Positions 2,212 to 44,500 of a stretch of DNA of 64,000 nucleotides are shown here, piece by piece. A program made the translations under genes and the position numbers. Within the stretch, counting starts at the first letter, position 1, and every line of letters starts with the position of its first letter. A model generated the notes under the pieces. It ran no database searches. It worked only from the letters and a program-made list of their open reading frames with translations, and was not told the DNA's origin. The stretch comes from Bacteroidia bacterium (GTDB taxonomy: Bacteria > Bacteroidota > Bacteroidia > SpSt-205), in assembly GCA_026003215.1 (NCBI GenBank), contig BPGV01000001.1, positions 2,202,466-2,266,465 of the forward strand, read 5' to 3'.

Positions 2212-5200
2212 ATGTGTTTGTATTTTTGCTCCATGAGCAAGTTACTTACAGTTTTTTGCGGACTATTAGGGAGTGTATATGCCCAATTGGTGCTCCTTCG
2301 GCAGGCAGACAGCCTACGCGCTGCGGGTAAGTATGCAGTAGCTTACAGCTTGTATGACTCGCTCGTACGGCAGCCAGGTATAGCAGATACATTACGGCTG
2401 CGAGTTTACATTGGAGGGGCCGAGTGTTTGGCAGGGCAGCGGAAGGTGTCTGAGTTAGAAGCTTGGACAGCTAAGGGAGCACAGCTGGCTTTGAGTCTGC
2501 GAGATACAAATAGTTGGGCAAGCGTGCTCTTATGGCGAGGGCAAGCATACCTTTTAGTGGGAGCTCTATCGGAGGGAAAAGAGCTCATAGATACGCTGCT
2601 CAGGGCATTAGTAGGATTGAGGCAAGTGGATTCCGTGGTCTATGCTCAAGTGGTTGATGTACTTGCTCAGCAATATTGGGATCAAGGGGAATATGCGGAG
2701 GCGGAAAGCCTACTTAAGGTAGTGATGGGCGTCAGGTATCGGTTGCTGGGCAAGGACCACCCAGCATATCTGAGTGCACTTAATAACTTGGCATCGGTAT
2801 ATTGGATCCAAGGGGAATACGCAGAAGCGGAGAGGCTATATAAGGCTGTGGTGGAAATACAATATCGGATATTGGGCGTAGAACATCCGCGACGGTTATC
2901 TTCGCTGAATAACTTGGCGGTTGTATATCAGGACCAAGGGCGGTATGTAGAGGCAGAGAGTCTACATAAGGCCGTCGCGGAAATGCGATATCGGGTACTG
3001 GGCGCAGAACATCCGCAGTACTTGGCTTCGCTAAATAATCTCGCGAATGTGTATGAAGATGAAGGGCGGTATGTGGAGGCGGAAAGCTTGCATAAGTTAG
3101 TCGCTGGGGTGATGTCGCGAGTATTGGGTGCAGAACATCCACGGTATTTGTATTCGCTGAATAATCTCGCAAATGTGTATCATGAGCAAGGGCGGTATGC
3201 GGAAGCGGAGAGTTTGCACAAGGTAGTGGCTGGGGCGAGGTATAGGATATTAGGTCCAGAGCATCCGGATTATTTGCTTTCGCTTTATAATCTGGCGAGT
3301 GTATATCGCGATCAGGGGCGGTATATGGAGGCAGAGAGCTTGTATAAGGCAGTGGTTGAAGCAAGATATAGGATATTAGGTGCAGAGCATAGAGATTATT
3401 TAGCTTCCGTAGATAATCTCGCGAATGTATATCATGAGCAAGGGCGGTATGGGGAAGCGGAAAGCTTGCATAAAGTGGTAGCAGAAGTTAGTCATCGTGT
3501 GTTAGGCAGCGAGCATCCGCTCTACATGGCTTCGCTGGGTAATTTGGCCAATGTATATCATGATGCAGGGCGGTATGCGGAAGCGGAGAGTTTGCATAGA
3601 GCTGTGGCAGTGATGCGATATCACCTATTGAGCGCAGAACACCCGCACTACTTAGTTTCACTAAATAACTTGGCGTGGTCATACGCAGCACAGGGGAAAT
3701 ACCTATTGGCGGATAGTGTATGGCCGGAGGTCATGTATGGAACTTTTCGTTTGATACGGCGAGAGTTTGTGGGGTTGGCTGGGGCGCATCAGCTGGCATT
3801 TTTAGAGAACAATCTCATGGGGCGTTTTATAGGCTTTCAGCGCTATGTAGGGGTTCGTGGAGGAGCTAATGCTGCGCTTTTACGGCTGGGGTATCGTGCG
3901 GCTCGGAGCGTGAAAGGCCTAGTGCTGAGTTCGGTGGAAGGGCTGCGGTATTTAGCGGAGCAGAGTAGGGATAGTGTGACGCAGGCGTTGTATCAGCGGT
4001 GGCTGCGGCTGACGCAGCAGTATGCGGCGCTCATGCTACGGGAGGACTACGAGCAGGCGAGGCGGGTACAGAAAGAGGCGGAAGCAGTGGAGGGGGAGCT
4101 GGCGCGGCGGTTGCCGGAGGTGCGGAGTTTTTTGCCGGACATAGAGGGGGAGGGGGAGCCTGAGCTGCGGAGCGGGGAGGCGGTGGTGGAGATAGTGCGC
4201 GTAGCGGATAAGGACACGGTATGGTATCTGTACTATATCTTGACGCCGAGGAGGCGAGGGGTGGATATACGACTTTTAGTGCGGCGGATAGGACGAGCGG
4301 AAGAGGAGCGGTGGGAGCGGGTGTATGAGCTCCTGCGTTCTCCTGGTGCGCAGGTGAGCGGGAAAGCATACGAGGGGCTATGGGCGTCGGTGGATAGCGT
4401 GCTCCCGGGGGGTATAAAGCGGGTGTATGTGTCGCCGGACGGGGTATATTATCGGGTGAATGTAGGTACGCTGTATGATGGGCGGCGGTATGTGATAGAG
4501 CGGTATGGAGTGAACTATGTAGCAAGCAGCCGTCGTCTGATAGTGCGTAAGCGGCGTGGGGAGGGCCGGCGGTCAGTGGTGGTGGGCGGTCCTGAGTTTG
4601 GGGGGGAGTCGCCTGCTGGGCAGCCTGTGCGCGGTAGTCGTTTTTTCCTGTATGGGATACCACCGCTTGCTGGTGCAGAGGCAGAAGCGCAGGAGGTAGC
4701 TCGGCTATTGGGTGTGGAGGCGGTGACAGGTTCGGCTGCGCGGGAGGAGGCCGTGAAGGGGGCCGTATCGCCGAGGGTGCTACACATAGCGACGCATGGG
4801 TATTATGATGCTGGGGCGCCGACGGGCTTGTTGGGATCGGGTTTGTTATTTGCGCAGGCGGCGGTGTGGGATAGCGTGTATCCACCAGCGGGGGTAGAGG
4901 ACGGCCGTTTGACGGCCAAAGAGGTGAGTGGCATGAATCTGCTGGGGACGGAGCTGGTGGTATTGTCGGCGTGTGAGACGGGTCTTGGGGAGGTGAGGGG
5001 GGAGGGCTTGTATGGGTTGCAGCGGGCGTTTTTGGAGGCGGGGGCTTCTCGGGTGATGGCGGCGTTATGGCAGGTGGATGATGCGGCGACACGGGCGTTT
5101 ATGGAGCGGTTTTATCAGCGGTGGGGCCAGGCCGGCTGGAAAGCCGAGACGATAGACCAGGCATACGAGGCGGTAGTGCGGGAGTTTAAGAAGCGGTACA

Positions 5201-5241
5201 GGCAGCCGTACTATTGGGGAGCGTTTGTGCTGATGCGGTGA
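2212..5241 (+). CDS. Secreted/periplasmic TPR-repeat protein with a C-terminal CHAT (caspase-like) protease domain
   Basis: N-terminal signal-like segment (MSKLLTVFCGLLGSVYAQ). Nine 42-aa TPR_10/12-type repeats (YLxSLNNLANVYxxQGRYxEAESLHK). The C-terminus has the CHAT His-Cys dyad context (HIATHGYYD ... LVVLSACETG). Confidence 0.8.
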   Translation: MCLYFCSMSKLLTVFCGLLGSVYAQLVLLRQADSLRAAGKYAVAYSLYDSLVRQPGIADTLRLRVYIGGAECLAGQRKVSELEAWTAKGAQLALSLRDTNSWASVLLWRGQAYLLVGALSEGKELIDTLLRALVGLRQVDSVVYAQVVDVLAQQYWDQGEYAEAESLLKVVMGVRYRLLGKDHPAYLSALNNLASVYWIQGEYAEAERLYKAVVEIQYRILGVEHPRRLSSLNNLAVVYQDQGRYVEAESLHKAVAEMRYRVLGAEHPQYLASLNNLANVYEDEGRYVEAESLHKLVAGVMSRVLGAEHPRYLYSLNNLANVYHEQGRYAEAESLHKVVAGARYRILGPEHPDYLLSLYNLASVYRDQGRYMEAESLYKAVVEARYRILGAEHRDYLASVDNLANVYHEQGRYGEAESLHKVVAEVSHRVLGSEHPLYMASLGNLANVYHDAGRYAEAESLHRAVAVMRYHLLSAEHPHYLVSLNNLAWSYAAQGKYLLADSVWPEVMYGTFRLIRREFVGLAGAHQLAFLENNLMGRFIGFQRYVGVRGGANAALLRLGYRAARSVKGLVLSSVEGLRYLAEQSRDSVTQALYQRWLRLTQQYAALMLREDYEQARRVQKEAEAVEGELARRLPEVRSFLPDIEGEGEPELRSGEAVVEIVRVADKDTVWYLYYILTPRRRGVDIRLLVRRIGRAEEERWERVYELLRSPGAQVSGKAYEGLWASVDSVLPGGIKRVYVSPDGVYYRVNVGTLYDGRRYVIERYGVNYVASSRRLIVRKRRGEGRRSVVVGGPEFGGESPAGQPVRGSRFFLYGIPPLAGAEAEAQEVARLLGVEAVTGSAAREEAVKGAVSPRVLHIATHGYYDAGAPTGLLGSGLLFAQAAVWDSVYPPAGVEDGRLTAKEVSGMNLLGTELVVLSACETGLGEVRGEGLYGLQRAFLEAGASRVMAALWQVDDAATRAFMERFYQRWGQAGWKAETIDQAYEAVVREFKKRYRQPYYWGAFVLMR
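2650..3720 (+). repeat. Nine tandem 126-bp near-identical coding repeats (TPR units) inside the TPR-CHAT gene
   Basis: Repeated DNA blocks (ggcggtatg[c/t]ggaagcggagag[c/t]ttgcataa...) are visible directly. The encoded peptide repeats are highly similar. Confidence 0.6.
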
Positions 5242-5275: not shown

Positions 5276-8086
5276 ATGAATATCGTGCTCCGGGGCGCCC
5301 GTACCCACACGCTGAAAAATATCACCGTCGCCTTTCCCCGCTATAAGTTTATCGTGGTGACGGGTGTGAGCGGCTCGGGAAAAAGTTCCCTGGTCTATGA
5401 TACGCTCTATGCAGAGGGGCAGCGCCGCTATGCGGAGACTTTCTCGGCTTATGCCCGGCAGTTCCTCCAGACCGTAGAACGCCCCGATTTAGACAGCTTA
5501 GAGGGCCTTAGCCCCGTGATAGCCATGGACCAGCACCGCTATACCCACAATCCCCGCTCCACCCTGGGCACTACCACGCAGATATACGATTACCTGCGCC
5601 TCCTGTACAGCCGTATTGCCGAACCGCACAGTTTAGTGACCGGCGAAAAGCTCGTCCGCTACACTGAAGAAGAACTTATGGCCCTTCTCCGACATCGATT
5701 CAGCGGCCGGCGCATCCACATACTCGCTCCGATCGTCCGTGCCCGTAAAGGCCACTACCGCGAGGAGCTCTCAGCCCTCCTCAAAAAAGGCTTTGACCAT
5801 GTGCGCATAGATGGGGAATGGTACGACCTTTCCACCGGCATCCCTACCCTCCAGCGCAATAAAATCCACGATATTGAGGTCCTCATAGATACGTTGGATC
5901 CCGCCCATCAGCATGAAGCCCTTCAGCGAGCGGTACAGCTGGCCCTCAGAAAGGGGAATCGTTCCCTCTTCGTGATTGAAAAAGGCAAGCCCGAGGTATG
6001 GGCGTATTCCTTGGATTATGTCGACCCTACTACCGGGACGAGCTTTGATGAGCCCCAGCCTAATACCTTTTCCCATAATAGCCGTTATGGGGCCTGTCCT
6101 ACATGTAAGGGCATGGGTACGGTACGGGTGCTGGCAGTAGAAGCGCTTTTCCCAGAGGAGGATTGGCCAGCAAGGGAGGCCTTGGCCCCCACGCGAGAGG
6201 ATGATAAGGTACTTTTTTTCTGGCAAGAACTTTTGCGCAGACACCACATAGACGTGGCTTTGCCTTGGCGGGAGGTGTCCGAGAATGTCAAAAAAAAGCT
6301 CGTATGGGGCACCGCAGAGGAAGGGCAGTTTTTTGTGGAGCGGGAGCCGGAAGGTGACCTTCCTTTGCTTCACTGGCAGCGGCCGTCTTCGGTATGGGAG
6401 TATATGCAAGCAGCCTATTATGAAGACCGTCCGCCCACATGGATAGATAAGTATGTGGTGCCTAAGACCTGTCCTACTTGCGAAGGACGTCGTCTCAAAA
6501 AAGAATCTTTGGCTTTTCGTTTGGGGGGCCTTTCTATCGGAGAAGTGGGACTTATGGAGTTAGCTGAGGTAGGGCGCTGGCTGGAAAGGCTTCCAGAAGA
6601 GCTGTCTCCCACCGCTCGGGCTATCGGGGGGGACCTCATCCGGGAGATACGCAAAAGAGTGGGATTCTTAGAGCGGGTGGGACTGGGCTATCTCTCCCTT
6701 TTCCGGCCTATGGCTTCGCTCTCAGGGGGGGAAGCCCAGCGGGTGCGTTTGGCCGCCCAGCTCGGCGTAGGACTTACCGAGGTGCTCTACATCTTAGACG
6801 AACCCAGCATAGGCCTGCATCCGAGGGATAACCGCTTCCTCTTAGAGGCGCTTAAGGGCTTGCGCGACCAAGGCGCTACGGTCATCGTGATAGAGCATGA
6901 TGAGGAAACCATGCGGGCTGCGGATTGGCTGATAGAGATTGGACCAGTCGGCGGGAGAAAAGGGGGCTACTTAGTGGCCGAGGGGAGCTATGAGGCATTT
7001 ATCCAGCAGCCCAGCCTCACGGCAGACTACCTTACCGGACGCAAACAGGTACCTCTTCCACCTCCACGCCAGGGCCCTTGGGAATGCCTCACTTTACACG
7101 GTGCCCGTGGCCATAACCTGAAAAAACTCACCCTACGCCTGCCCTTGGGGCGTCTCATCGTAGTGGCCGGCGTAAGCGGCTCCGGTAAGAGTAGCCTTAT
7201 TTTAGAGACGCTGTATCCCGCGCTTTTGCGGGCTAAGCGGGCAGAGTATCGCCCCAGCTTACCGTATGAACGTATAGAAGGGGCCGACAAAGTAGATAAG
7301 GTCATTTTGGTGGACCAAGACCCTATCGGGCGTACGCCCCGCAGCAATCCCGCCACTTATACCGGACTGATGGATGAGATACGGCGATGGTTTGCGGAGC
7401 TGCCGCTTTCCCGAGCCCGAGGGTATAAGCCCGGCCGATTTTCCTTCAATGTAAAGAATGCGGGGCGCTGCGAAACCTGCCAAGGCGCCGGCGTCCAAAC
7501 CATAGAAATGGGCTTCTTACCCCCCGTCTATGTGACCTGTCCGGCGTGCCACGGCCAGCGCTACAACCCCGAAACCTTAGAGGTCCGCTACAAAGGAAAA
7601 AACATTAGCGACGTGCTGCGCATGAGTGTAAGTGAGGCCCTCGAGTTTTTTTCCGCCCATCCGAAGGTTACGCGCTATTTAGCCGTAATGGAGGAGATAG
7701 GTTTAGGGTATTTGCCTTTGGGGCAACCTTCGCCTACGCTGTCGGGGGGGGAGGCCCAGCGGGTCAAGCTGGCGGAGCAGCTGGCCCGGCCAGATACCCA
7801 CCGTACCCTCTATATTTTAGACGAACCCACCACGGGCTTGCATATAGACGATATTGGGAAGCTCCTTGCTGCGTTGAATCGGCTGGTGGATAGAGGCAAT
7901 ACGGTGATTATCATTGAGCATAACTTGGATGTGATACGGCGGGCCGACTGGGTGATTGAACTCGGGCCTGAGGGCGGAGAGAAAGGCGGCTATTTGATTG
8001 CAGAGGGGCCCCCAGCTGTAATAGCTGAGAGCGACACCCCCACCGGGCGGGCTTTGCGAGAAGTTTTGGTGGGGCAAGTAGTATAA
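5276..8086 (+). CDS. uvrA: Excinuclease ABC subunit A
   Basis: The N-terminus MNIVLRGARTHTLKNI...VVTGVSGSGKSSLVYDTLYAEGQRRY is canonical UvrA. It has two ABC ATPase modules (LSGGEAQR signatures twice), zinc-finger Cys pairs, and is 936 aa long. Confidence 0.92.
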   Translation: MNIVLRGARTHTLKNITVAFPRYKFIVVTGVSGSGKSSLVYDTLYAEGQRRYAETFSAYARQFLQTVERPDLDSLEGLSPVIAMDQHRYTHNPRSTLGTTTQIYDYLRLLYSRIAEPHSLVTGEKLVRYTEEELMALLRHRFSGRRIHILAPIVRARKGHYREELSALLKKGFDHVRIDGEWYDLSTGIPTLQRNKIHDIEVLIDTLDPAHQHEALQRAVQLALRKGNRSLFVIEKGKPEVWAYSLDYVDPTTGTSFDEPQPNTFSHNSRYGACPTCKGMGTVRVLAVEALFPEEDWPAREALAPTREDDKVLFFWQELLRRHHIDVALPWREVSENVKKKLVWGTAEEGQFFVEREPEGDLPLLHWQRPSSVWEYMQAAYYEDRPPTWIDKYVVPKTCPTCEGRRLKKESLAFRLGGLSIGEVGLMELAEVGRWLERLPEELSPTARAIGGDLIREIRKRVGFLERVGLGYLSLFRPMASLSGGEAQRVRLAAQLGVGLTEVLYILDEPSIGLHPRDNRFLLEALKGLRDQGATVIVIEHDEETMRAADWLIEIGPVGGRKGGYLVAEGSYEAFIQQPSLTADYLTGRKQVPLPPPRQGPWECLTLHGARGHNLKKLTLRLPLGRLIVVAGVSGSGKSSLILETLYPALLRAKRAEYRPSLPYERIEGADKVDKVILVDQDPIGRTPRSNPATYTGLMDEIRRWFAELPLSRARGYKPGRFSFNVKNAGRCETCQGAGVQTIEMGFLPPVYVTCPACHGQRYNPETLEVRYKGKNISDVLRMSVSEALEFFSAHPKVTRYLAVMEEIGLGYLPLGQPSPTLSGGEAQRVKLAEQLARPDTHRTLYILDEPTTGLHIDDIGKLLAALNRLVDRGNTVIIIEHNLDVIRRADWVIELGPEGGEKGGYLIAEGPPAVIAESDTPTGRALREVLVGQVV

Positions 8087-8143
8087 GGGCGCTTTCCGGC
8101 CCTACGAAGCCTTATTTTCATCCAAGTAGTTTGGTTCGGTAAT

Positions 8144-8172
8144 AAAAAAGCCCCTCTCTGTTCGAGAGGGGC
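8144..8172 (-). terminator. Rho-independent terminator downstream of groEL, also positioned to stop uvrA on the other strand
   Basis: The hairpin gcccctctc-tgttc-gagaggggc (9-bp stem) is followed by a T-run on the minus strand, which is the A-run 8144-8149 on plus. It lies between convergent uvrA and groEL. Confidence 0.55.
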
Positions 8173-8197
8173 TTGAGGAGGCAAGAGGAGCTCTGGC

Positions 8198-9844
8198 TTA
8201 GAAGTCCATGTCGCCGCCGCCCGGCCGAGCAGGGGCTTTTTCTTCTTCCGGCTCCTCTACGACCACGCATTCCGTGGTAAGGAGGAGGGAAGCGATGGAA
8301 GCGGCGTTTTCCAGCGCGGTACGCGCTACCTTAGTCGGGTCTACCACGCCGTTTTCAAAGAGGTTTTCAAACTGCTCGGTACGGGCATTCCACCCAAAGT
8401 CGCCTTGCCCTTCCTTGACTTTTTCTACGATGATGGCGCCTTCTTTCCCGGCGTTGTAGGCGATTTGGCGGAGGGGTTCTTCCAGCGCACGGCGCACAAT
8501 CTCTACGCCGATGCCCATATCTCCTTTGAGGAACTTGTCATTGATGCCGCCTTTGCCGGGGAGAAGGGCAGGGATGCAGCGCAGGTAAGCCACGCCACCG
8601 CCTGGCACGATGCCTTCTTCTACGGCTGCGCGGGTTGCATGGAGCGCATCTTCTACCCGGGCTTTCTTTTCTTTCATGGCGACTTCGGTGGCTGCGCCTA
8701 CATAGAGCACAGCTACACCGCCAGAGAGCTTGGCCAGCCGTTCTTGGAGTTTTTCGCGATCATAATCAGAGGTGGTGGTTTCTATTTGCGCTTTGATTTG
8801 GTTGATTCGGGCTTTGATGCGTTCCGGATCACCTTGGCCACCGACGATGGTAGTATTGTCTTTATCTACCGAGATTTTCTTGGCTTTGCCCAGGTAATCC
8901 AGGGTAGCGTGTTCCAGCTTGTACCCTTGTTCTTCGGAGATGACCGTACCACCCGTGAGGATGGCGATATCTTCGAGCATGGCTTTACGGCGATCGCCGA
9001 AGCCAGGCGCCTTCACCGCCACCACCCGCAACGTACCACGCAGCTTATTCACCACGAGGGTAGCCAGCGCTTCTCCTTCCACATCCTCGGCTATAATCAA
9101 GAGCGGCTTATTGACACGCACCACTTGCTCGAGGATGGGGAGGAGGTCCTTCATGCTGGAGATCTTCTTGTCGTGGATGAGGATGAGCGCATCTTCCAGT
9201 TCCGCCACCATTTTATCGGTGTTGGTGACGAAGTGCGGGGAGATATAGCCCCGGTCAAACTGCATCCCTTCCACGACTTCCAGATAGGTTTCAATGTTGC
9301 GCGATTCTTCCACGGTAATAACGCCGTCCTTGCCCACCTTATCCATGGCGTCGGCGATGAGCTTGCCGATTTCTTCATCGCCGTTAGCGGAGAGAGTAGC
9401 TACTTGAGCTATCTCTTTGGAACTGGTAATGGGACGGCTGATTTTCTTCAGCTCTTCTACGACTACCTTGACCGCTTCGTCAATGCCACGCTTGATTTCC
9501 ATGGGGTTAGCGCCGGCCGTGACATTCTTAAGCCCTTCGCGGAAAATGGCTTGGGCCAGCACTGTAGCGGTAGTGGTTCCATCGCCGGCGACATCCGCCG
9601 TCTTAGAAGCCACTTCTTTTACCATCTGGGCGCCTAAGTTTTCCATGGGGTCTTTGAGGGTGATTTCTTTGGCTACGGTGACCCCGTCCTTGGTCACAAG
9701 CGGGGCGCCAAACTTCTTTTCAATCGCTACGTTCCGACCACGAGGGCCTAAGGTCACTTTTACGGCATTGGCCAGCGCATCTACCCCGGCTAAGAGTTTT
9801 GCGCGGGCTTCTGCATTGTACCGGATGATCTTTCCTGTCGCCAT
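8198..9844 (-). CDS. groL: Chaperonin GroEL (60 kDa)
   Basis: 548 aa. Characteristic GroEL motifs are present ([24 protein letters not shown], and a Gly-rich C-terminus ...GGGDMDF). The groES gene is immediately upstream. Confidence 0.93.
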
Positions 9845-9864
9845 AGTTTTTTCAGTTTGGGTTT

Positions 9865-10143
9865 TTAGCTGATAATAGCATAAATGTCCGACTCACGCAT
9901 AATCAAGTACTCTTTCCCGTCAATTGTAATCTCGGTACCGGCGTACTTACCGTACAGGACTTTGTCTCCGACCTTGACGGTGAGGGGTTCATCTTTTTTG
10001 CCGGGACCGACGGCTACGATGGTGCCCTTTTGGGGCTTTTCCTTAGCGGTGTCTGGAATGATGATGCCGGCTGCAGTTTTTTCTTCGGCAGGCGCCGGCT
10101 CTACTACCACGCGATCGGCTAAAGGCTTGATGTTCACCGACAT
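9865..10143 (-). CDS. groS: Co-chaperonin GroES (10 kDa)
   Basis: The track ORF carries a 40-aa non-homologous N-terminal extension. The protein from the internal Met ([16 protein letters not shown]...[16 protein letters not shown]) is a typical 92-aa GroES. The ATG was verified at 10141-10143 on the complement strand. Confidence 0.85.
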
Positions 10144-10240
10144 AGTGCTTTTTGGATTAGGTTTGGGGGAAAGAAGAGCAAAGGGCGTGCCAGTGCATGC
10201 GAAGGCCTCTTTTCTGACAAAGTGTGCGTCTTTTTGACAA

Positions 10241-10272
10241 AAAGAAAAGCGGCGAGCTGACAAGCCCGCCGC
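10241..10272 (-). terminator. Putative rho-independent terminator of icd
   Basis: Hairpin gcggcg-agctgacaagc-cgccgc is followed on the minus strand by ttttcttt. A pair of TTTGTCA direct repeats sits just downstream, in the groES leader. Confidence 0.4.
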
Positions 10273-10299
10273 TTCGGGTGCATAGTTTGACAGGGTACG

Positions 10300-11754
10300 T
10301 TACTCGCCTTGCCCCTTAGAAAAGCCCTCTATTCCGTCAAAACGGCAGAGGTGTTCAGTTTTGATAAAGTCCAGGCCTGCTTGCTTGTATGCTTGGAGGG
10401 CCGCAATCACATCGTCGTGGGTGATAGGCTGGCCGGTGGCCGAGAGCAGGCGGGTACGCCAGTGGTCTGTGAGAAAAGTCTCTTCTACGGTGTTGGGCCA
10501 TACGGCTGTACCTCTATTAGAAATCATTGTCAGCTTAAGCGTGGGGGGGATGGCTTTTTGGATTTTCTCTGCCAGTTCTTTGGGGTGCCCAGGTAGCCAC
10601 TCAACAAACACATCTACGCCGATGAGCTCTTTCTTCGGACGGTTTTTGCGCTCGTAAGGGGGGATATGAATGGCCTTGGAGGCGCCGCCTTCTTGGGTAT
10701 AGCGCACGACTCTAAGCTGCTCGGGTAGTTTCCCAAGGTTGCGTACCACTGCCTCCGCAAACTCTTTGGTACCTACTTTTTCGCGGGAGACCCCTTCTCG
10801 GTAGATGTCGTAGGTATGGTAGCCTTCTTCGATTGTACGAAGCCAGGCATTATGAACGCGCTCCGCTACTTCGGCTTGGCCGATATGCACCAGCATCATA
10901 ATACCCGCATGAAGGAGGCCGGAGGGATTGGCTAAGTTTTGGCCTGCACGGCGGGGGGCAGAACCGTGGATAGCTTCAAACATGGCCACATTCGGGCCAA
11001 TGTTTGCGGAGCCGGCCAGCCCCACAGAGCCGGCAATCTGGGCTACCATATCCGACAAAATGTCCCCGTATAAATTAAGGGTTACCACTACATCAAACTG
11101 TTCTGGCGTATCTGCCAGCTTAGCTGTGCCGATGTCTATAATCCAGTGTTCTTTTTCTATGTCGGGGTATTCGGCGCCGATTTCATCAAAGATTTTATGA
11201 AAAAGCCCGTCGGTAAGCTTCATAATGTTGTCCTTGGTCATGCACGTGACTTTTTTTCGATTGTAGGCCCGTGCGTATTCGAAGGCGTACCGAATGATTT
11301 TTTCAGTGCCGGGCCGTGTGATGATTTTGAGCACTTGGTAAACTTCGGGGGTTTGGCGATGTTCTATGCCCGCGTACAAGTCTTCTTCGTTTTCCCGCAC
11401 AATCACCACATCTAAGCCGGGGTATTTTGTCTCAATAAAAGGATGATAAGACACACAAGGGCGCACGTTAGCAAAGAGATTGAAGAGCTTACGAGTGGTT
11501 ACATTGAGGCTTTTAAAGCCGCCCCCCTGTGGGGTAGTAATAGGAGCTTTATAGAAGACACGGGTTTGCCGTATCACATCAATCGCCTCCGGGGTGATGC
11601 CGGCGGTATGCCCTTGGAGGTAGATTTTTTCCCCGATTTCAATCACATGAGGCTCTATTTGGGCGCCTGCTTCATTCAGAATGTGCAAACAGGCCGACAT
11701 AATCTCGGGGCCGATGCCGTCCCCGTACGCTACAGCTATGGGTACTTTGGCCAT
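10300..11754 (-). CDS. icd: Isocitrate dehydrogenase (NADP-type, isocitrate/isopropylmalate dehydrogenase family) with a C-terminal extension
   Basis: MAKVPIAVAYGDGIGPEI..., the substrate-binding region, and the NLYGDILSD metal/substrate loop typical of the IDH/IMDH family. 484 aa. Confidence 0.75.
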   Translation of the reverse strand: MAKVPIAVAYGDGIGPEIMSACLHILNEAGAQIEPHVIEIGEKIYLQGHTAGITPEAIDVIRQTRVFYKAPITTPQGGGFKSLNVTTRKLFNLFANVRPCVSYHPFIETKYPGLDVVIVRENEEDLYAGIEHRQTPEVYQVLKIITRPGTEKIIRYAFEYARAYNRKKVTCMTKDNIMKLTDGLFHKIFDEIGAEYPDIEKEHWIIDIGTAKLADTPEQFDVVVTLNLYGDILSDMVAQIAGSVGLAGSANIGPNVAMFEAIHGSAPRRAGQNLANPSGLLHAGIMMLVHIGQAEVAERVHNAWLRTIEEGYHTYDIYREGVSREKVGTKEFAEAVVRNLGKLPEQLRVVRYTQEGGASKAIHIPPYERKNRPKKELIGVDVFVEWLPGHPKELAEKIQKAIPPTLKLTMISNRGTAVWPNTVEETFLTDHWRTRLLSATGQPITHDDVIAALQAYKQAGLDFIKTEHLCRFDGIEGFSKGQGE

Positions 11755-11766
11755 ATCGCCGCAAAC

Positions 11767-12336
11767 CTACGAACTTTTTAAGGCTATCTGCAGGAGGTCT
11801 TCGGCGGTGCCTTCGGGCAGGGTAGAGAGGGCTTTTTCTAAGCGCGTGTGGGCTTCAGCGGCAGTGAATCCCAGAGCCAGCATAGCTTCGTACGCTTCTT
11901 GATAGGCAGGCGGAAGGGAAGCCGAAGGCAGGGCCTTTAAAGCAGAACGCAGCTCTAAAAGCAGGTGTTGGGCCAGTTTGGGGCCGATACCTTTTATGCT
12001 GCTAATCGTCTTAGCGTCGTTTGCTTGTATCAGGTGCATAAGCTGGGAAGGGCTGAAATGGGATAATAGCGCCAAGGCTTTTTGGGGGCCTACCCGCGGG
12101 ACTTTCTTAAGAAGAAGGAAAAAGTGCCGTTCTTCTTCCGTAAGAAACCCGTACAGGAGCGGCTCTCCTTCCTCCCGGGGGAGCCAAAGTACCGTAAAGA
12201 GGGTACAGCTCTGCCCCACGGACAAGCGTTTGCTCACGGATAGGGGCACTTGCAGCGTGATACCCAACGGGCCTACCTTCATGAGGATTTGGTGGGGTTT
12301 TAGGGCGAGCACTTCCCCGGCGAGGTAGGCGACCAT
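11767..12336 (-). CDS. ruvA: Holliday junction DNA helicase RuvA
   Basis: The internal start MVAYLAGEVLALKPHQILMKVGPLGITLQVP matches the RuvA N-terminal OB domain. HhH motifs are present (ISSIKGIGPKLAQHLLLEL) and a C-terminal domain III. The track ORF has a spurious 66-aa upstream extension. ATG confirmed at 12334-12336 on the complement strand. Confidence 0.8.
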   Translation of the reverse strand: MVAYLAGEVLALKPHQILMKVGPLGITLQVPLSVSKRLSVGQSCTLFTVLWLPREEGEPLLYGFLTEEERHFFLLLKKVPRVGPQKALALLSHFSPSQLMHLIQANDAKTISSIKGIGPKLAQHLLLELRSALKALPSASLPPAYQEAYEAMLALGFTAAEAHTRLEKALSTLPEGTAEDLLQIALKSS

Positions 12337-12388
12337 ACTTGCAAATGTGCCGGAAAATCTCCGTACCTTTGCGGCAAACACACACACT

Positions 12389-12931
12389 ATGCGGTACGCA
12401 CAGTACATCGCCGGAGTCGCCCTTTTATGGGCGGTAGTGGCCTGCAGCAGTGGGCCCAGCAAAGAGTTCGTAGAACAAGCCACAAAAGAACTCACAGACC
12501 TCAAGGGCGCATCAGAGAAGCTGAATGCTCTCAAGGGGGATGTGGCCAGTCTTCAGGATCCCTTCGCTGCCGTTAAGCAGGAGCTGGGTAAAGTTTGGAC
12601 AGAGAAGGTAGAAAAGGACAAAGAGCTGGTGGATAAAGCGAATGCCCTTACGGAGCAAGCGAAGAAGCTCTCTGAAGAAGTGGCTTCTGTCGAAGGACAG
12701 CTTAATAGCGCCCTGAGTGAAGCCCAAAGCTTTGTAGACGGCTTGGCTACGCAAAAGAAGGGAGACGAAGAGCTTAAGAAAGAATGGGAAGCTATCAAGA
12801 CCAAGATTACCGAAGCAGCAGGCAAGGTGGATCAGCTTGCTGGCCAAGTAGCTCAGCTCAAGCAAGAAGTGCAGGCGCACACCGAGGCTATTAAGGCGAA
12901 GTATGCGCCTAAGCCGGCGGCTAAGAAGTAA
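12389..12931 (+). CDS. Coiled-coil lipoprotein (hypothetical)
   Basis: Start MRYAQYIAGVALLWAVVACSS gives a signal peptide plus lipobox. The remainder is a K/E/A-rich coiled coil (apolipoprotein-like heptads). It is divergent from ruvA. Confidence 0.45.
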   Translation: MRYAQYIAGVALLWAVVACSSGPSKEFVEQATKELTDLKGASEKLNALKGDVASLQDPFAAVKQELGKVWTEKVEKDKELVDKANALTEQAKKLSEEVASVEGQLNSALSEAQSFVDGLATQKKGDEELKKEWEAIKTKITEAAGKVDQLAGQVAQLKQEVQAHTEAIKAKYAPKPAAKK

Positions 12932-12996
12932 GGAGTAGTAGAGCTTCCAGTAAGTCGAGGCGCAGGTCGTCCAGGCCTGCGCCTTTTTTCTTAACC

Positions 12997-13803
12997 TTGC
13001 GGTGGATGTGGCGTAGCTTCTACTGGAGCTTAGGGGGCATAGTTTTCCTGGGTGTTATGAGTGGATGTGTCTCTAAGTCGCAGCTTTTTCGTACGCCCTA
13101 TGATAAAGACCTTCGGAGAGCCCTCCGCAAACAAAAGCAGGGATGGGTGACCGCGGGGCCTTCGGCAAACATAGCTCCTGCGCCTACTACCCCGGTCTTG
13201 ATGGCCGGGCAGTTTTTGCGCATGGTATTAGAAACACCGAGGCCTATAGTAGAAGAAGGTAGCTTTTGGCAGGTCGTGCATGTGGATACCTTACGTATTC
13301 TGGAAGATAGCTTGGTGTATATTCCTTGGCTGGGGAGTATCCGGGTGGGGGGGGTGCCCCTGGATTCGGCTCAGAAGCTTTTAGAGGGGGTAGCCCAACG
13401 GGTATTTACAGGGGCACGTGTACGCCTTTATCCTTTGTATCCCTATTATATTTTTGGATATACTTCTCTGCCTGGGCGTATTTTTCTGGAAAAAAGCCGG
13501 ATAAGCTTGGTTGAAATTCTGTCTGTGTTGGCGGCAAATCCTTCTTTCTCAGCTTTAGACTTAGATTTTAGCAAGGTAAAGGTACTAAGGGGAGATCTCG
13601 GCAATCCTCAGGTTTTTCTCATAGATATCCGTGACGCTTATATGATGGATGGGGACTTTTATTTCTATGCCGGGGATATTTTGGTTATAGAACCTCGGCA
13701 AATGGTCAGATTGCGTTTGGAGGCTCAAAACTACCTGGCCTTTATAGGCATGACTCAAGTACTAAACCTCCTTTTGTTGGTTGCTTTTAGATTAGGGCTG
13801 TAG
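12997..13803 (+). CDS. Polysaccharide export protein (Wza/Poly_export-like with an SLBB-type domain)
   Basis: Signal/TM segment, then regions resembling Poly_export and SLBB beta-grasp domains. It lies directly upstream of a Wzc-like BY-kinase. Homology is only moderately clear by eye. Confidence 0.5.
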   Translation: MRWMWRSFYWSLGGIVFLGVMSGCVSKSQLFRTPYDKDLRRALRKQKQGWVTAGPSANIAPAPTTPVLMAGQFLRMVLETPRPIVEEGSFWQVVHVDTLRILEDSLVYIPWLGSIRVGGVPLDSAQKLLEGVAQRVFTGARVRLYPLYPYYIFGYTSLPGRIFLEKSRISLVEILSVLAANPSFSALDLDFSKVKVLRGDLGNPQVFLIDIRDAYMMDGDFYFYAGDILVIEPRQMVRLRLEAQNYLAFIGMTQVLNLLLLVAFRLGL

Positions 13804-35321: not shown

Positions 35322-37256
35322 TTATCGAGCCATGTCCGCCTTGATGAGCCGTATCGTTCGGACTTCTCCGCCATAGCTTACCACCGCATTATAGTTGCCC
35401 GCCGCTACTTGACTTAGGATACCGCTCAAATCCAGCGTATGTGTACCGGCGGCGAGGGTATAGTCACTTTTTACGACCAGCTTACCTGCGGCGTCATACA
35501 GCTGGAAGGACATAGGGCCTTCGGCGGGGAGAGAGACAAGCAGTTGGGCTTCGGTAACCACGGGGTTCGGTTGGAGCTGTACGGAGAAGCTTTCGCCTGC
35601 GCCGGGAAGCATCGCTTCCACAGTATTAGAATAGCGGATATTGCCGAAGATGTCGTGCTGTTCTACGCGGTAGAAGTAGCGGGTGAGGGGTTTCACGTAT
35701 TCATCTCGGTGGGTATAGCGGGTGCGTCCTTGCTTATCTACTTGGGCGATGCGGGTGAAGGCTACGCCGTCTGTACTACGGTAGAGTTCATACCCTAAGA
35801 TTTCGGGTCTTTCGGGGGAGACTTCCCAGGTGAGGGCGATAGCCGCGCCGGTAGGGGCAGCCGCTAATCGTATATCCTCGGAGGGGAGGGGGGCATTATT
35901 AGCAATCACCGTGGCGTAGAAGTAGGTACCGTTTTGGTTGTATGAGGTGAAGCCGGTACGCGTCACATCCCAGCCGGTGGAGTTGCCCTCACAGTTATTG
36001 GGGGGGGTAAGGAGGCCGCTAGTTGGGGCTTGGTTGTACCCTACATAGCAAAGATTAGTGGGGTAGTTGTTCCAGACGGGGTCGGAGCCGCCGGGAAGGC
36101 CGGTGCTGGTGCCTGCGGCGGGGCAGTTGCCAGTAGTGGTGGCGTTAGTGACGGTGCGGTTATACATGCGTACGCTGCTGGGACCGGAAGGAGTAGAGGG
36201 AGTTGTCGCATCTACGGCTGCAAAAGGCATGATTTCCCAGCGTCCGTTGTTGAGAGGGTTGTATTGACGGGAGGCGCCGGGGTCGCCCGGTCGGCAATAG
36301 GGAGGCTGAGTGAAGGGAGCTTGTACGGTAGGGTCAAACCGTACGCGCACATAATGGGCTGCGGCTGGGGTGACTTCTACGCCTTGCAGGCCATAGCCAT
36401 TGGGGGGAGTACCTATGGGAGCTGCTCCTACGGCAAAGGGATAGGCGGTGGCCGCAGCTACATTCCGCCGGAGGTAGCCGTATACGTAGCGGTCTTGGTT
36501 ATCGGGGTCCAAGGTAGCAAAGGAAGCGGGCTGGGCAGGCGCCCATGGAGTCCGGACTACGGCGTTAGCAGCTGGGTTGAGGACGCGCACTTCCAGCTGC
36601 GTGCCAAGACCAGCACCTGTGGTATGAATGCGCCCACTGACAAAGGTGAGGGTATTTCCTACCCAGATGTCTATGTAAGTTTCTCCTACGGGGATGGTAC
36701 AGATACCAGGACCAGTGTATGTCCCATCGGACGCATAGTCCGATCCCTCACAATCAATCGTGACGAAGCGCCCAGCCAGATTGGTATTGGTATTGTTGAT
36801 GCGGACATCATAAAAGGTCCAATCTTGTGAGTTACCCGAGCCATTCCGGATAGCAACGAGCTGGGGGGCATTTGCCCCGTTGAACTCTATGGTACCCCCG
36901 AGGGTAGTATTCCCGTTGGCATTCCATGTGCCTGTGGAGCGATGGGCACCTGAGATATTGTGGTAATGGCCTTGGAGGTAAATCCACGAGTTTGGGCGGG
37001 AGTTGACTTCGGCGCCTTGTCCAATCTTGAAGTGGCCGCGGTAGCCGCCGCTTCCATCCACGCAGCGGATGGTGCCGAGGTTTTCCAGGACGCCGTTATT
37101 GGTTCCGTTATCGTTGGTCTGCATGCCGCCCTGGACATATACCAGCGCACCGGATTGGACATAGACCAGTGCGCCTTGGTTGAAAAAGAGGTCCGGTTGT
37201 GCCCAGAGCAGCGCACCTGCCCAGCAAGCCAAATGGATAAGTGTCTGTCGTCTCAT
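35322..37256 (-). CDS. T9SS-secreted protein (fibronectin-III-like domain + C-terminal type-A sorting domain)
   Basis: Signal peptide (LIHLACWAGALLWAQ) and a C-terminal ~80-aa Por_Secre_tail-like domain (...FQLYDAAGKLVVKS...YNAVVSYGGEVRTIRLIK). Confidence 0.65.
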   Translation of the reverse strand: MRRQTLIHLACWAGALLWAQPDLFFNQGALVYVQSGALVYVQGGMQTNDNGTNNGVLENLGTIRCVDGSGGYRGHFKIGQGAEVNSRPNSWIYLQGHYHNISGAHRSTGTWNANGNTTLGGTIEFNGANAPQLVAIRNGSGNSQDWTFYDVRINNTNTNLAGRFVTIDCEGSDYASDGTYTGPGICTIPVGETYIDIWVGNTLTFVSGRIHTTGAGLGTQLEVRVLNPAANAVVRTPWAPAQPASFATLDPDNQDRYVYGYLRRNVAAATAYPFAVGAAPIGTPPNGYGLQGVEVTPAAAHYVRVRFDPTVQAPFTQPPYCRPGDPGASRQYNPLNNGRWEIMPFAAVDATTPSTPSGPSSVRMYNRTVTNATTTGNCPAAGTSTGLPGGSDPVWNNYPTNLCYVGYNQAPTSGLLTPPNNCEGNSTGWDVTRTGFTSYNQNGTYFYATVIANNAPLPSEDIRLAAAPTGAAIALTWEVSPERPEILGYELYRSTDGVAFTRIAQVDKQGRTRYTHRDEYVKPLTRYFYRVEQHDIFGNIRYSNTVEAMLPGAGESFSVQLQPNPVVTEAQLLVSLPAEGPMSFQLYDAAGKLVVKSDYTLAAGTHTLDLSGILSQVAAGNYNAVVSYGGEVRTIRLIKADMAR

Positions 37257-41516: not shown

Positions 41517-44500
41517 ATGCGTCTCGTAGGCATATATGGGCTTGCTTCGCTTCTATGGGCACAGACTATCTTAGTGAACGGTACAGGTGCGGGTTCCTTT
41601 GAAGGGGGCACGGGTTGTACTGGTAACTCTTATACTGTGGATGGCTGGACCATCGTTAATGGCACGCAGACCAACCGCTGGGCTGTCAATACCGGCGCTG
41701 GGGCCCAGCATGGCAGCCGGGCTATCTATATCACGAATAACTGTGGCGCTACCCCCCCCTCCTAATTCGTATACTATAACTTCTTCCTCCGTTGTACATT
41801 TTTATCGGGATGTGGCGCTGCCAGCAGGAGAGCCTTACATGACTATTTCGTTTTATGTAAAGGTCGAGGGAGAAGGCACTACTACTCAGTATGATTATTT
41901 GGATGTTTTGGTGGCCCCGACGAGTGTAACGCCTGCGGCAGGTACTGAGGTGAGTAGCACCTATCGGCTGGCGCGGTATAACCTACTGGGGAGTAGTTGG
42001 GTGCAGCGGACAGTGCGCTTTTGTGGGACAGGAGGGCAGACCTACCGGGTGATATTTTCTTGGCGGAATGATGCATCGGCGGGCACGCAGCCGCCCGCTG
42101 CCGTAGATCAAGTGCATATCACCAGTTCGGCTACGCCGCCTCCTACGCCCTGGATTGTGAATGTTTCTGCCCTCCCCTACAGCCACGGCGCTGATAATAC
42201 CTGTGGGAAAGGGAATAACCTCACCAGCAGCAATGTGTCTCCTACTTGCGGGAGTACTTCCTATTATGGTGGGGAGGATATGGTATGGGTTTTCACGCCG
42301 AACAGCTCTGGTATGGTTACGATTACGCTGAATGCTTCTACTACCTATACGGGTCTTAAGTTGTATCAGGGGGGGACGCTCAATCCGTGTGGCGGGCTCA
42401 CGGGGGCCACCTGCGTAGGCGAGGCAAACTCGGGGTCGAGCACCGCCAGTAACCTTACCCTCACTGCCTGTGTTCAGCCCGGGCAGACCTACTACCTGCA
42501 AGTAGATTATTGGCCTTCTCCTACGTGCGGTGCGATTACGAATCTCACTATTTCGGCGCCAACGCCCCTGGAGCCTGTACAGGCTTGGGTACGGGCGTGA
42601 CGACCGTCACCGCGCTTCCCTACAATAGCGGAGCCGGCACTACGTGTGGCGCTGTGGATGACATCACCTCCAGTAACGCGTGGAGCTGTGGGAGTAGCAG
42701 CTACTTTACCGGGGAGGATAGGGTATGGGTCTTCACGCCTACCACCTCGGGCGCCGTAACGATTACCCTGACCCACAGTAATGCCAGCTCGCCCTGGTTT
42801 GGTCTGAAGGTGTATGAGGGCTGCCCGCGTACTTCCAGTTGCGGGGTATGTGTAGGCTCTTGTGAAAGTAGTAGTGGGCCTTATTCCTTTAATGTAAATG
42901 TCACAGCGGGGAAGACCTATTATGTGGTATTGGATCATTATGCCTCGCCTGCTTGCGCTTCGTATGACAATCTGTCCATCTCTGCCCCAGTGAGTGGGGG
43001 AGGCGGAGCCTGTGGGTCGCCGGTCCTCTCCAGCTTTCCGGTGATTACGACGGGCACGACTGCTGGGGCGCCGCCGTTGGGGGTCTCGCCGAGTTGTGCC
43101 GTAGGGGGTAGCTGTGGAGGGGGTGGCGCTGTCGGACGGTGGTATCAGTTTATCCCTACGGCTTCCAATATGACTATTCATGTAGCGCCGGGCACCCTTA
43201 CCGACCCCGCCGTGGTTGTATTCAGCGCGCCTTCGTGTGGTGGGCCTTTCACAGAGATAGCCTGTCAGCAGGATGGTAGCAACACGGGGAATGACTGTGA
43301 GAGTTTTCCCTACTATGCCCATTTAGACCTTACCGGGCTTACCGTGGGGCAGACCTACTACATAGCAGTTTTTGGGGCGTCAGGCAGTGGGGATTATACC
43401 TTGGCGATATGGGAGACGGCCGCGCAGCCTCCTTCGCAGTTTGGGCAGGACTGTAACGCGATATCGGGCAACCCCGCCACCGGTCCGCTCCCCGTATGTA
43501 GTTCTACCTTTTCGGTGGGTGCACCGGGTTTTTTGGGGTCTGGTTTTACCTGTGACCTGCCGTATCCTGCCTCAGGTTGTCCAGGAAGTTGCCTGACCAG
43601 TGGAGAACGGAATATTGTTTGGCTCCGCCTCCCGATTGCCAGTAGTGGTAACCTCTCCTTTGCCATCACCCCCGCTCAAAATGTAGACTACGACTGGACC
43701 TTGTACCGTATAGATAATGTGTCTAACCCCTGCCAAGCTATACGTAATGGCACATTGCAGCCTGTAAGGTGTAGTTATGATGCGCCTACCTCGTGCGATG
43801 GCACCTATGGTACAGGGGTAGCGTGTGGTACGCCGGGGTGTGCTTCCGGCACCTGTGAAGGATCAAGCGGGCAAGGGTGGCTGCAGTGCCTACCCGTAAA
43901 TGCCGGCGAGGTGTATCTTTTAGGGATTTCTAACTTTAGCACGAGTACCTTTCCCGGGTTTAGTGTAGATTTTGGGACATCGCCGATTGATTATGGAGCG
44001 GCGAGTGCAGGACCGGCGGTGTGGACGGGCGGCGGCGGCACCACCGCCTGGAATAACAACGCCAACTGGGGTGGGTGCGCCTTTCCAGATAACTGTGCCA
44101 AGGATGTGGTAATCTACGGCGGCGCCGCTAACCAGCCGGTGATTGCTGCTGCAGAGACCTGGACGGTACAAAATATCACCATTCCTGCTGGGGCTAAGCT
44201 CACCGTCAATGGCACCCTCAACGTCTGCGGTCACCTCACCGTAAATGGGGAGCTGGACGGCACCGGCTGGATTGTGTTTGTTGGGGGGGCTGCTTACCCG
44301 GTGCAGGAGATACGCGGCGTGCTCACAGGGCCTACCCAATACATCCCCAACCTGCGCATAAACCGTGCTGCCGCCGGGACGGTGCGCCTCATGACCAACG
44401 TCCAAGTGCGTGGCCATGTGCAAATAGACAATAGCGCCAATAACACCCTGAACCTCAACAGCTATACCTTATTCGTAGGGGGGAACTTCGTAAATGTGGG

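Follow-up and report, generated by a model that had tools for sequence, protein, structure and literature searches.

A 64,000-nucleotide (nt) stretch of contig BPGV01000001.1 from a hot-spring Bacteroidia bacterium (the window) carries, between der and uvrA, a gene that joins tetratricopeptide repeats (TPRs) to a C-terminal CHAT domain. The gene is a single unbroken open reading frame (ORF) of 1,009 amino acids (aa) at 2212..5241 (+), and its product is very probably a member of an exported TPR-CHAT protease family. On balance, the explanation that best accounts for the gene as a whole is that it encodes a soluble periplasmic cysteine protease of clan CD, exported by the Sec pathway, gated by a ligand, and one of at least five paralogs in its genome. 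For the gating and selection mechanism taken by itself, with a ligand bound in the TPR groove, we put the chances at about even.

CHAT domain, catalytic dyad, and predicted export

The Pfam CHAT model (PF12770) matched residues 718-1008 with an E value of 5.2e-60 (203.8 bits against a cut-off of 24; profile positions 6-287 of 289). The initial annotation of this DNA, made from the letters alone, was therefore right about the 1,009-aa TPR-CHAT ORF and about the CHAT domain at its C terminus. We aligned 25 full-length homologs (alignment A1) and 14 CHAT domains reaching down to 37% identity (A2). His862 in the motif HIATHG and Cys921 in LSACETG were invariant in both alignments, which bears out the earlier description of the dyad as intact. 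Both motifs were kept in 40 of 40 distant representatives, and down to 37% identity HIATHG and the longer pattern LSACETGLG...GEGxYGLxRAF were invariant or nearly so. On these motifs, the CHAT domain is predicted to have peptidase activity. A different reading is that the protein is a noncatalytic TPR scaffold or adaptor of the envelope, with a CHAT domain that only binds partners. TPR proteins are commonly scaffolds, and the CHAT site of DdvA, an anti-sigma factor of Myxococcus xanthus, has been described as incomplete, with no cleavage shown for that protein. However, a dyad and surrounding motifs that change so little down to 37% identity are hard to explain without catalysis, and we regard a scaffold as very unlikely.

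The 25-sequence alignment gave an AlphaFold2 model with a mean predicted local distance difference test (pLDDT) score of 86.4 and a predicted template modeling (pTM) score of 0.82. It places 23 helices over residues 41-519, equivalent to about 11 to 12 TPR pairs, followed by linker helices (about 524-640), a three-stranded beta element and a helix (656-708), and an alpha/beta domain that runs to the C terminus. No Pfam model covers the linker region (3796..4362), yet this region is conserved together with CHAT across the family. Foldseek matches of the model in the PDB included human separase (9hn0_B; E = 6e-12), DdvA (8rw5 and 8rot; E = 1e-11), and the Craspase chains 7zoq, 7y8t, 8d9f, and 7xsq. 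The repeat region alone matched the TPRs of kinesin light chain (KLC) at 30 to 36% identity over 240 to 290 residues. As modeled, the window protein has a fold of the caspase/separase type.

By sequence, the only solved relatives were DdvA (phmmer against the PDB, E = 0.0096) and Csx29, the TPR-CHAT protein of Craspase (A2 profile, E = 0.002). Both alignments span the strand that carries the catalytic Cys, and LSACETG lines up with VVLAACEGG of DdvA and VILGACETDL of Csx29. The cysteine of the DdvA motif is presumably C907, which has been named as the cysteine of the DdvA dyad (PMC11506125). The protein belongs to Pfam CHAT and to the TPR_10/TPR_12 repeat class, and sequence comparison indicates a bona fide CHAT protein that is distant from all solved structures.

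Three starts have been called for the gene: the first ATG at 2212 (1,009 aa), Met8 at 2233 (NCBI; 1,002 aa), and GTG codon 105 at 2524 (JGI; 905 aa). The true start is probably Met8. The JGI call drops both the signal peptide and a conserved N-terminal cap (N-cap), which, counted from its ADS motif, has a constant length of 119 aa in five paralogs, where it is 59 to 63% identical to that of the window protein. Only 24 residues (17 counted from Met8) stand ahead of the TPR region, and they form the predicted signal peptide. Its sequence pattern places cleavage after MSKLLTVFCGLLGSVYA and directly before QLV, that is, between Ala24 and Gln25. A Met followed by Arg or Lys, 10 to 14 hydrophobic residues, a small residue, and Gln was the pattern in 22 of the 25 close homologs. 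Across the wider family, 34 of 40 cluster representatives had the same kind of N terminus, and of the six that did not, several resemble truncated gene calls. Gln25 was conserved at ≥90% in the 25-homolog alignment. Substrates of signal peptidase I in Bacteroidetes have been described as cleaved so as to leave an N-terminal Gln, the "Q-rule" (PMC5837995). The signal peptide contains a Cys that has no counterpart in the listed paralog N termini and that, judging from the residues around it, lies outside a lipobox context. The mature chain has only two cysteines, one of them the catalytic one.

Genes for TonB-dependent receptors also lie in the window, as does one for a protein that has two PPIC-type rotamase domains and that we take to be SurA-like; these genes mark the host as a diderm, with an outer membrane. 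Taken together, the conserved N-terminal pattern, its fit to the Q-rule, the two cysteines of the mature chain, and the diderm host make export to the periplasm the best reading and a likely one, in agreement with the signal peptide and periplasmic location first proposed. Were translation to begin downstream, as at the JGI codon, or were the N terminus no signal at all, the protein would be cytoplasmic and might act as a Craspase-like effector. One gene caller did choose codon 105, but the 104 residues thereby lost, including the hydrophobic segment and Gln25, are conserved in the paralogs and in distant homologs, and NCBI starts the protein at Met8. In addition, no Cas7-11 or other cytoplasmic partner was found, and the Csx29 model (NCBIfam NF041237) gave 16.1 bits against a cut-off of 300. 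We consider a cytoplasmic effector highly improbable.

Proteins of this kind are not rare. Of the 8,000 candidates scored in a full-length search, more than 7,800 passed E ≤ 1e-10; the near matches came from Bacteroidia metagenome-assembled genomes (MAGs) and carried the name "CHAT domain-containing protein" or "tetratricopeptide repeat protein." When the effect of the TPRs was removed by searching the C-terminal 515 residues against 1.84 billion representatives clustered at 50% identity, there were 96,849 matches at E ≤ 0.001, 56,939 at E ≤ 1e-10, and 4,837 at E ≤ 1e-30, many of them proteins of 900 to 1,100 aa that cover the whole linker and CHAT domain (query 1-515). Given these numbers, the export signal in 34 of 40 representatives, and relatives that were already annotated, the rarity implied by the initial annotation was overstated. 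Exported TPR-CHAT proteins are extremely common in the Bacteroidota, and the architecture, with its export signal, belongs to a very large, routinely annotated, functionally uncharacterized family. Our literature search found no paper on exported TPR-CHAT proteins of the Bacteroidota. The window gene alone has little significance, being of an already recognizable and annotated type at a locus that is not exceptional. A small genome with five close paralogs would be a convenient system for asking what role periplasmic caspase-like proteases play.

Repeat array, protease half, and codon usage among the paralogs

The array had been described as nine near-identical 126-bp DNA repeats, the number of which was likely to be unstable by recombination. 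The unit length and the period were confirmed. Pfam TPR_10 (E = 7.7e-78, 255 bits) and TPR_12 (E = 1.5e-69, 230.6 bits) matched in 8 and 6 stretches, respectively; the TRF program reported a 126-bp period over 2823-3646 (6.5 copies, 72% matches, score 389) and again over 2782-3016; and canonical units are spaced by exactly 42 aa. Eight units are canonical, whereas the ninth is degenerate, with 24 to 31% amino acid identity and 33 to 45% DNA identity to the others. The near-identity was not found. Among the eight canonical units, mean pairwise identity was 66% in DNA (range, 56 to 76%) and 64% in amino acids, and the identities at codon positions 1, 2, and 3 were 71%, 77%, and 49%. Third positions are close to saturated. 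The longest exact run between two units was 30 nt (3189-3218 and 3567-3596). Because of the low mean DNA identity, the 49% at third positions, and the short longest run, the units are conserved as protein and not as DNA; they are old, protein-level selection keeps them alike, and homologous recombination has little in them to act on. Since the premise of near-identity fails, the inference of an unstable copy number fails with it: regular repeats at the protein level do not imply repeat instability at the DNA level.

The window protein is identical in two JGI contigs (P0001) and in an NCBI MAG protein (P0122; GIV24255.1, KatS3mg025_1914). In the one contig that we compared at the DNA level (L015), there were 3 mismatches and 0 indels over 9241 nt. 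Because these samples are near-clonal, the identical array is weak evidence for stability, but the DNA identities of the units together with the unchanged gene length in the near-identical contig led us to reject repeat instability. The comparison of repeat counts across strains that the initial annotation had suggested gave the same count in near-clonal samples and different counts only between old paralogs, with 7 canonical units in P0127, 8 in the window protein, P0003, and P0126, and 9 in P0002. Gain and loss of whole units thus occurs, on the time scale of paralog divergence.

The genome, a small one, holds at least five dispersed TPR-CHAT paralogs. On the 2.27-Mb KatS3mg025 contig there are at least four copies (_1914, which is the window protein, _0350, _0147, and _1843), and a MAG from the same population has a fifth type (P0002), with the _0350 type as its tandem neighbor. 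The N-cap is always 119 aa long in these proteins and the C-terminal half always 495 aa, whereas the array between them varies from 7 to 9 canonical units. We found no positional orthology of units between paralogs; any unit is about as close (64 to 76%) to units of other proteins as to those within its own. When entropy was calculated per position over 40 units, 24 of the 42 positions were almost fixed, and the most variable were, in order, 6, 7, 38, 31, 35, 23, 3, and 12. Spaced i+3/4 along helix A, variable positions 35, 38, 3, 6, and 7 would, going by the helix boundaries of the model, all point to the same side of it. Helix A is the helix that generally lines the concave ligand groove in TPR proteins.

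The two halves of the protein have diverged to very different extents. Between paralogs, the C-terminal half is 84 to 91% identical in protein, versus 51 to 62% for the array. Over the C-terminal 495 codons (3754-5238 in the window, with counterparts in L005, L006, and L007), each of the six gene pairs had a DNA identity of 84 to 88% and shared exact runs of 44 to 109 nt. Identical residues in this half used the same codon in 69 to 78% of cases, against 50 to 54% expected from codon usage (z = 10 to 16). The N-cap is at or near saturation between paralogs, except in the recently split pair P0126 and P0127. Because uniform C-terminal DNA lies next to a saturated N-cap and diverged arrays, the simplest reading of the sequences is mosaic evolution, in which gene conversion would exchange or homogenize the protease module among the paralogs while the arrays diverge. 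If any part of the gene is prone to recombination, it is the 1.5-kb protease half and not the TPR units.

Two side observations concern this half. The second gene of the L005 tandem (11143-13770, at the end of JAOAFG010000011.1) is 100% identical to P0003 over residues 1-650 and 100% identical to P0127 thereafter; the switch is either an assembly chimera caused by the similarity of the protease halves or a true recombinant. At L007, 7269-7295 encodes a short fossil CHAT C terminus, YWTAFVLMR followed by a stop codon, 21 nt ahead of the GTG codon at which the P0126-type paralog starts; tblastn found no longer CHAT remnant at that locus.

The codon usage of the gene is foreign to its surroundings. 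In the window gene, ACC and CCC make up 0% of their codon families, GCC 8%, CGC 5%, and ATC 10%, and Ile is encoded by ATA in 86% of cases; the same C-ending codons account for 36 to 58% of their families in der, uvrA, and groEL pooled. The third-position GC skew of the gene, +0.62, is the most extreme among 42 ORFs of the window (the others range from -0.50 to +0.37). The skew lies between +0.50 and +0.66 in all the TPR-CHAT paralogs and near -0.05 in their neighbors. A 49%-identical homolog in another MAG is also atypical (+0.38, against +0.07 for its genome), and more distant homologs match the third-position skew of their hosts. Possible causes of the avoidance of C are a horizontal origin of this subclade, low or conditional expression, and a gene-specific bias. 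Transcription-linked deamination was set aside as an explanation for third positions rich in G, since the skew of groEL runs the other way.

Possible mechanism and comparison with known systems

In the mechanism that we propose, the signal peptide would be cleaved between Ala24 and Gln25, leaving the mature protein in the periplasm. There the TPR solenoid would bind an extended peptide or a protein ligand in its concave groove, and this binding would select the substrate, relieve a misaligned resting active site, or both. The CHAT domain would then cut a periplasmic or envelope protein. Because the protease half is almost identical among the paralogs and the differences fall at presumed groove-lining positions, each paralog probably recognizes a ligand of its own. 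The array itself would evolve by slow gain and loss of whole units and not by rapid recombination. Active sites that are gated by a ligand or that select substrates in this way are established for separase and Craspase. For DdvA, gating at rest has been proposed, the dyad residues being 11 Å apart in the resting state, and this protein is a precedent for a periplasmic TPR-CHAT protein held at rest (PMC11506125).

Several considerations weigh against this mechanism. The localization comes from a sequence pattern, and the N-terminal segment may instead remain uncleaved and serve as a membrane anchor. The variability of helix A could reflect relaxed constraint instead of specificity. The genome-foreign codon usage could mean that expression is low or conditional. 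Finally, we know of no substrate or ligand for any member of this TPR-CHAT subfamily.

By analogy, the window protein would work most like the sensor domain of DdvA, Craspase, and separase, yet it is a member of none of these. DdvA is, to our knowledge, the only characterized extracytoplasmic TPR-CHAT protein. Like the window protein, DdvA (PDB 8ROT and 8RW5) has a TPR solenoid followed by a CHAT domain with a His/Cys dyad, and it gave both the best bacterial Foldseek match and the best PDB phmmer match, the latter around the catalytic Cys; the sequence similarity is nevertheless marginal. DdvA is a dimeric single-pass membrane protein that has a cytoplasmic zinc-binding anti-sigma domain, pairs with the extracytoplasmic function (ECF) sigma factor DdvS, and is without a three-helix motif (PMC11506125). 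In contrast, the window protein has a predicted cleavable signal peptide, neither anchor nor cytoplasmic domain, no sigma factor neighbor, and regular 42-residue repeats of the KLC type. A DdvA-type anti-sigma factor was rejected because there is no zinc-binding anti-sigma domain with a transmembrane helix and no adjacent ECF sigma gene.

Csx29, of the type III-E CRISPR system Craspase, likewise has TPRs followed by a CHAT domain with a caspase-like dyad, and it is allosterically gated. It differs in being cytoplasmic, binding Cas7-11 and CRISPR RNA, and cleaving Csx30, whereas the window protein carries a signal peptide and there are no CRISPR genes around its gene. Membership in the Csx29 family was rejected on the NF041237 score; a Csx29 context was rejected because Cas7-11/gRAMP, Csx30/31, and a CRISPR array are not adjacent, cas genes being absent from the paralog loci as well. 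Separase, the eukaryotic C50 protease, shares the order of a helical repeat solenoid and a caspase-fold protease and was the top whole-chain Foldseek match. It is, however, eukaryotic, much larger, nuclear or cytoplasmic, and regulated by securin, and the match had 11 to 13% identity and TM-scores of 0.2 to 0.3.

For the array alone, the closest likeness is to KLC, which has the same 42-residue unit with the signature LNNLA...Y..QG.Y.EAE.L...AL.I....LG..HP. In KLC, the concave groove is where cargo peptides bind. It is cytoplasmic and has six repeats and no protease, whereas the window protein has eight canonical units and degenerate caps fused to CHAT. The repeat arrays of fungal and bacterial NLR/STAND receptors (see, for example, PMC4986451) resemble those of this family in having consensus-like TPR units, a few hypervariable positions, and unit numbers that vary between paralogs. 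Unlike these receptors, the window protein has no NTPase domain, and because its units are only 66% identical in DNA, rapid shuffling of repeats as in the NLR/STAND arrays is not expected. Two further candidates were rejected. A gasdermin-activating or STAND-linked CHAT protein was discarded because the protein lacks an NTPase domain, its gene is flanked by der and uvrA, and PADLOC found no system protein. The TPR protein of the FxSxx-COOH system was discarded because NF040586 gave 189.4 bits against a cut-off of 300, over the TPR region only.

The paralogs might instead form a repertoire for surveillance or defense of the periplasm, in which the arrays detect foreign proteins that enter the envelope from a phage, predator, or competitor, and CHAT cleaves an envelope or signaling protein; this would be the logic of the DdvA sensor without its anti-sigma module. 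Diverged hypervariable arrays on a common protease half, unit numbers that differ between paralogs, and codon usage that is foreign, as in horizontally acquired accessory genes, all fit such a role, and the periplasmic TPR-CHAT part of DdvA has been proposed to sense a phage-associated protein (PMC11506125). However, PADLOC identified no defense system protein, returning only a generic TPR match and a spurious Cas6d match. Defense genes, ECF sigma/anti-sigma pairs, gasdermins, and nucleases were absent beside all seven loci (that of the window and six related ones), where the neighbors are housekeeping genes. The abundance of the family in Bacteroidota makes a general envelope function at least as likely, and we think a defense repertoire rather unlikely.

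A more specific proposal, which we consider quite unlikely, is that the paralogs are an NTPase-free periplasmic repertoire for pattern recognition. Gene conversion would keep the protease module, the synonymous sites of which are far from saturation, uniform, while the grooves would diversify to meet different incoming proteins. The set would have been acquired horizontally, as the C-avoiding codon usage suggests. If true, this would be an envelope-side analog of NLR-type immunity in a thermophilic Bacteroidia bacterium.

Gene neighborhoods and sequence features

Next to the TPR-CHAT genes of the window and the six related loci (Table 1), we found no NACHT, Cas, or other partner gene and no sigma factor gene. 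Because the neighbors differ at every locus, co-conserved neighbors are absent, and the initial description of a stand-alone gene without a NACHT, Cas, or sensor partner was correct. A scan of genome contigs with the C-terminal half gave no more than four loci, all of them distant (in cyanobacteria, Aureisphaera, and Thermoanaerobaculia) and uninformative on synteny. At L009 and L010, an HtrA/DegP-like gene (Trypsin and PDZ domains; 8931-10367) lies directly downstream of the homolog P0028; because it was seen at one locus type only, the adjacency is probably coincidental.

Table 1. Features of the TPR-CHAT gene in the window and neighbors of related genes
Locus	Feature	Coordinates	Strand	Basis or neighbors
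Window	Whole ORF, TPR-CHAT protein	2212..5241	+	First ATG to stop codon, inclusive; Pfam TPR_10/TPR_12 and CHAT
Window	Met8 start and predicted Sec/SPI (signal peptidase I) signal peptide, MSKLLTVFCGLLGSVYA	2233..2283	+	NCBI start; Q-rule pattern; predicted cleavage before Gln25
Window	N-terminal cap, degenerate TPR-like helix pairs, residues 25-150	2284..2661	+	AlphaFold2 paired helices 41-157
Window	Eight canonical 42-aa (126-bp) TPR_10/TPR_12 units, residues 151-486	2662..3669	+	Register, TRF period of 126, Pfam
Window	Ninth, degenerate TPR unit capping the array, residues 487-528	3670..3795	+	Model helices 478-493 and 497-519
Window	Helical linker (~524-640), then three-stranded beta element and helix (656-708)	3796..4362	+	Secondary structure, pLDDT
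Window	CHAT domain (caspase fold, clan CD), residues 718-1008	4363..5235	+	Pfam PF12770; Foldseek
Window	Predicted catalytic His862 codon (HIATHG)	4795..4797	+	Invariant in A1 (25 sequences) and A2 (14)
Window	Predicted catalytic Cys921 codon (LSACETG)	4972..4974	+	Invariant in A1 and A2
L005	Two TPR-CHAT genes	8001-11123 and 11143-13770		PGI-like and cation-efflux genes
L006	TPR-CHAT gene	7797-10670		ileS and CHU_C gene
L007	TPR-CHAT gene	7317-10319		Unknown genes and carA
L008	TPR-CHAT gene			dnaG
L009/L010	TPR-CHAT gene			his operon and HtrA-like protease
L011	TPR-CHAT gene	6001-9396		MBOAT and efflux genes

In the window, Pfam confirmed both flanks, between which the gene had been described as wedged: upstream der/EngA (869-2191; two MMR_HSR1 GTPase domains and a KH_dom-like domain) and downstream uvrA (5276-8086). 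The wider neighborhood consists of a gene for a putative SH3 lipoprotein, der, uvrA, and groEL/ES. The TPR-CHAT gene is on the same strand as der and uvrA, with gaps of 20 to 41 nt to der and 34 nt to uvrA, and we found no convincing terminator at either junction. This arrangement could be taken to mean that the three genes form an operon and share a function in ribosome assembly or DNA repair. The gene order, however, occurs only in near-identical contigs, the paralogs adjoin unrelated genes, and a relative with a 73%-identical Der keeps the SH3 gene and der and then has pheT. An exported protein would, moreover, have no access to ribosomes or DNA. The chance of a shared function is next to nil; we rejected an operon logic because synteny is absent, and the position between der and uvrA is without functional meaning. 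A scan for sigma-70 promoters, which does not model those of Bacteroidota, was uninformative, with 5 sites against 4.6 expected, and tblastn found no second CHAT gene within the window.

The pairing of the SH3-domain gene with der (167-2191) recurs in the metagenome contigs L012 and L013 (7310-9305), which are the relatives with the 73%-identical Der, where pheT follows der in place of the CHAT gene and uvrA. The N terminus of the SH3 protein of the window, MRKIGFILILWWLGLSC, is one that we take to be a putative lipoprotein signal. Inside the CHAT region, an antisense Pro-rich ORF of 353 aa (4031-5092, -) is no gene but an artifact of a coding strand rich in G and poor in C. Elsewhere in the window, three large ORFs had no Pfam match at E ≤ 1e-6: 35322-37256 (-; 644 aa), 42510-45782 (+; 1,090 aa), and 47063-50008 (+; 981 aa). 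The first of these has the most negative third-position GC skew of the window, -0.50.

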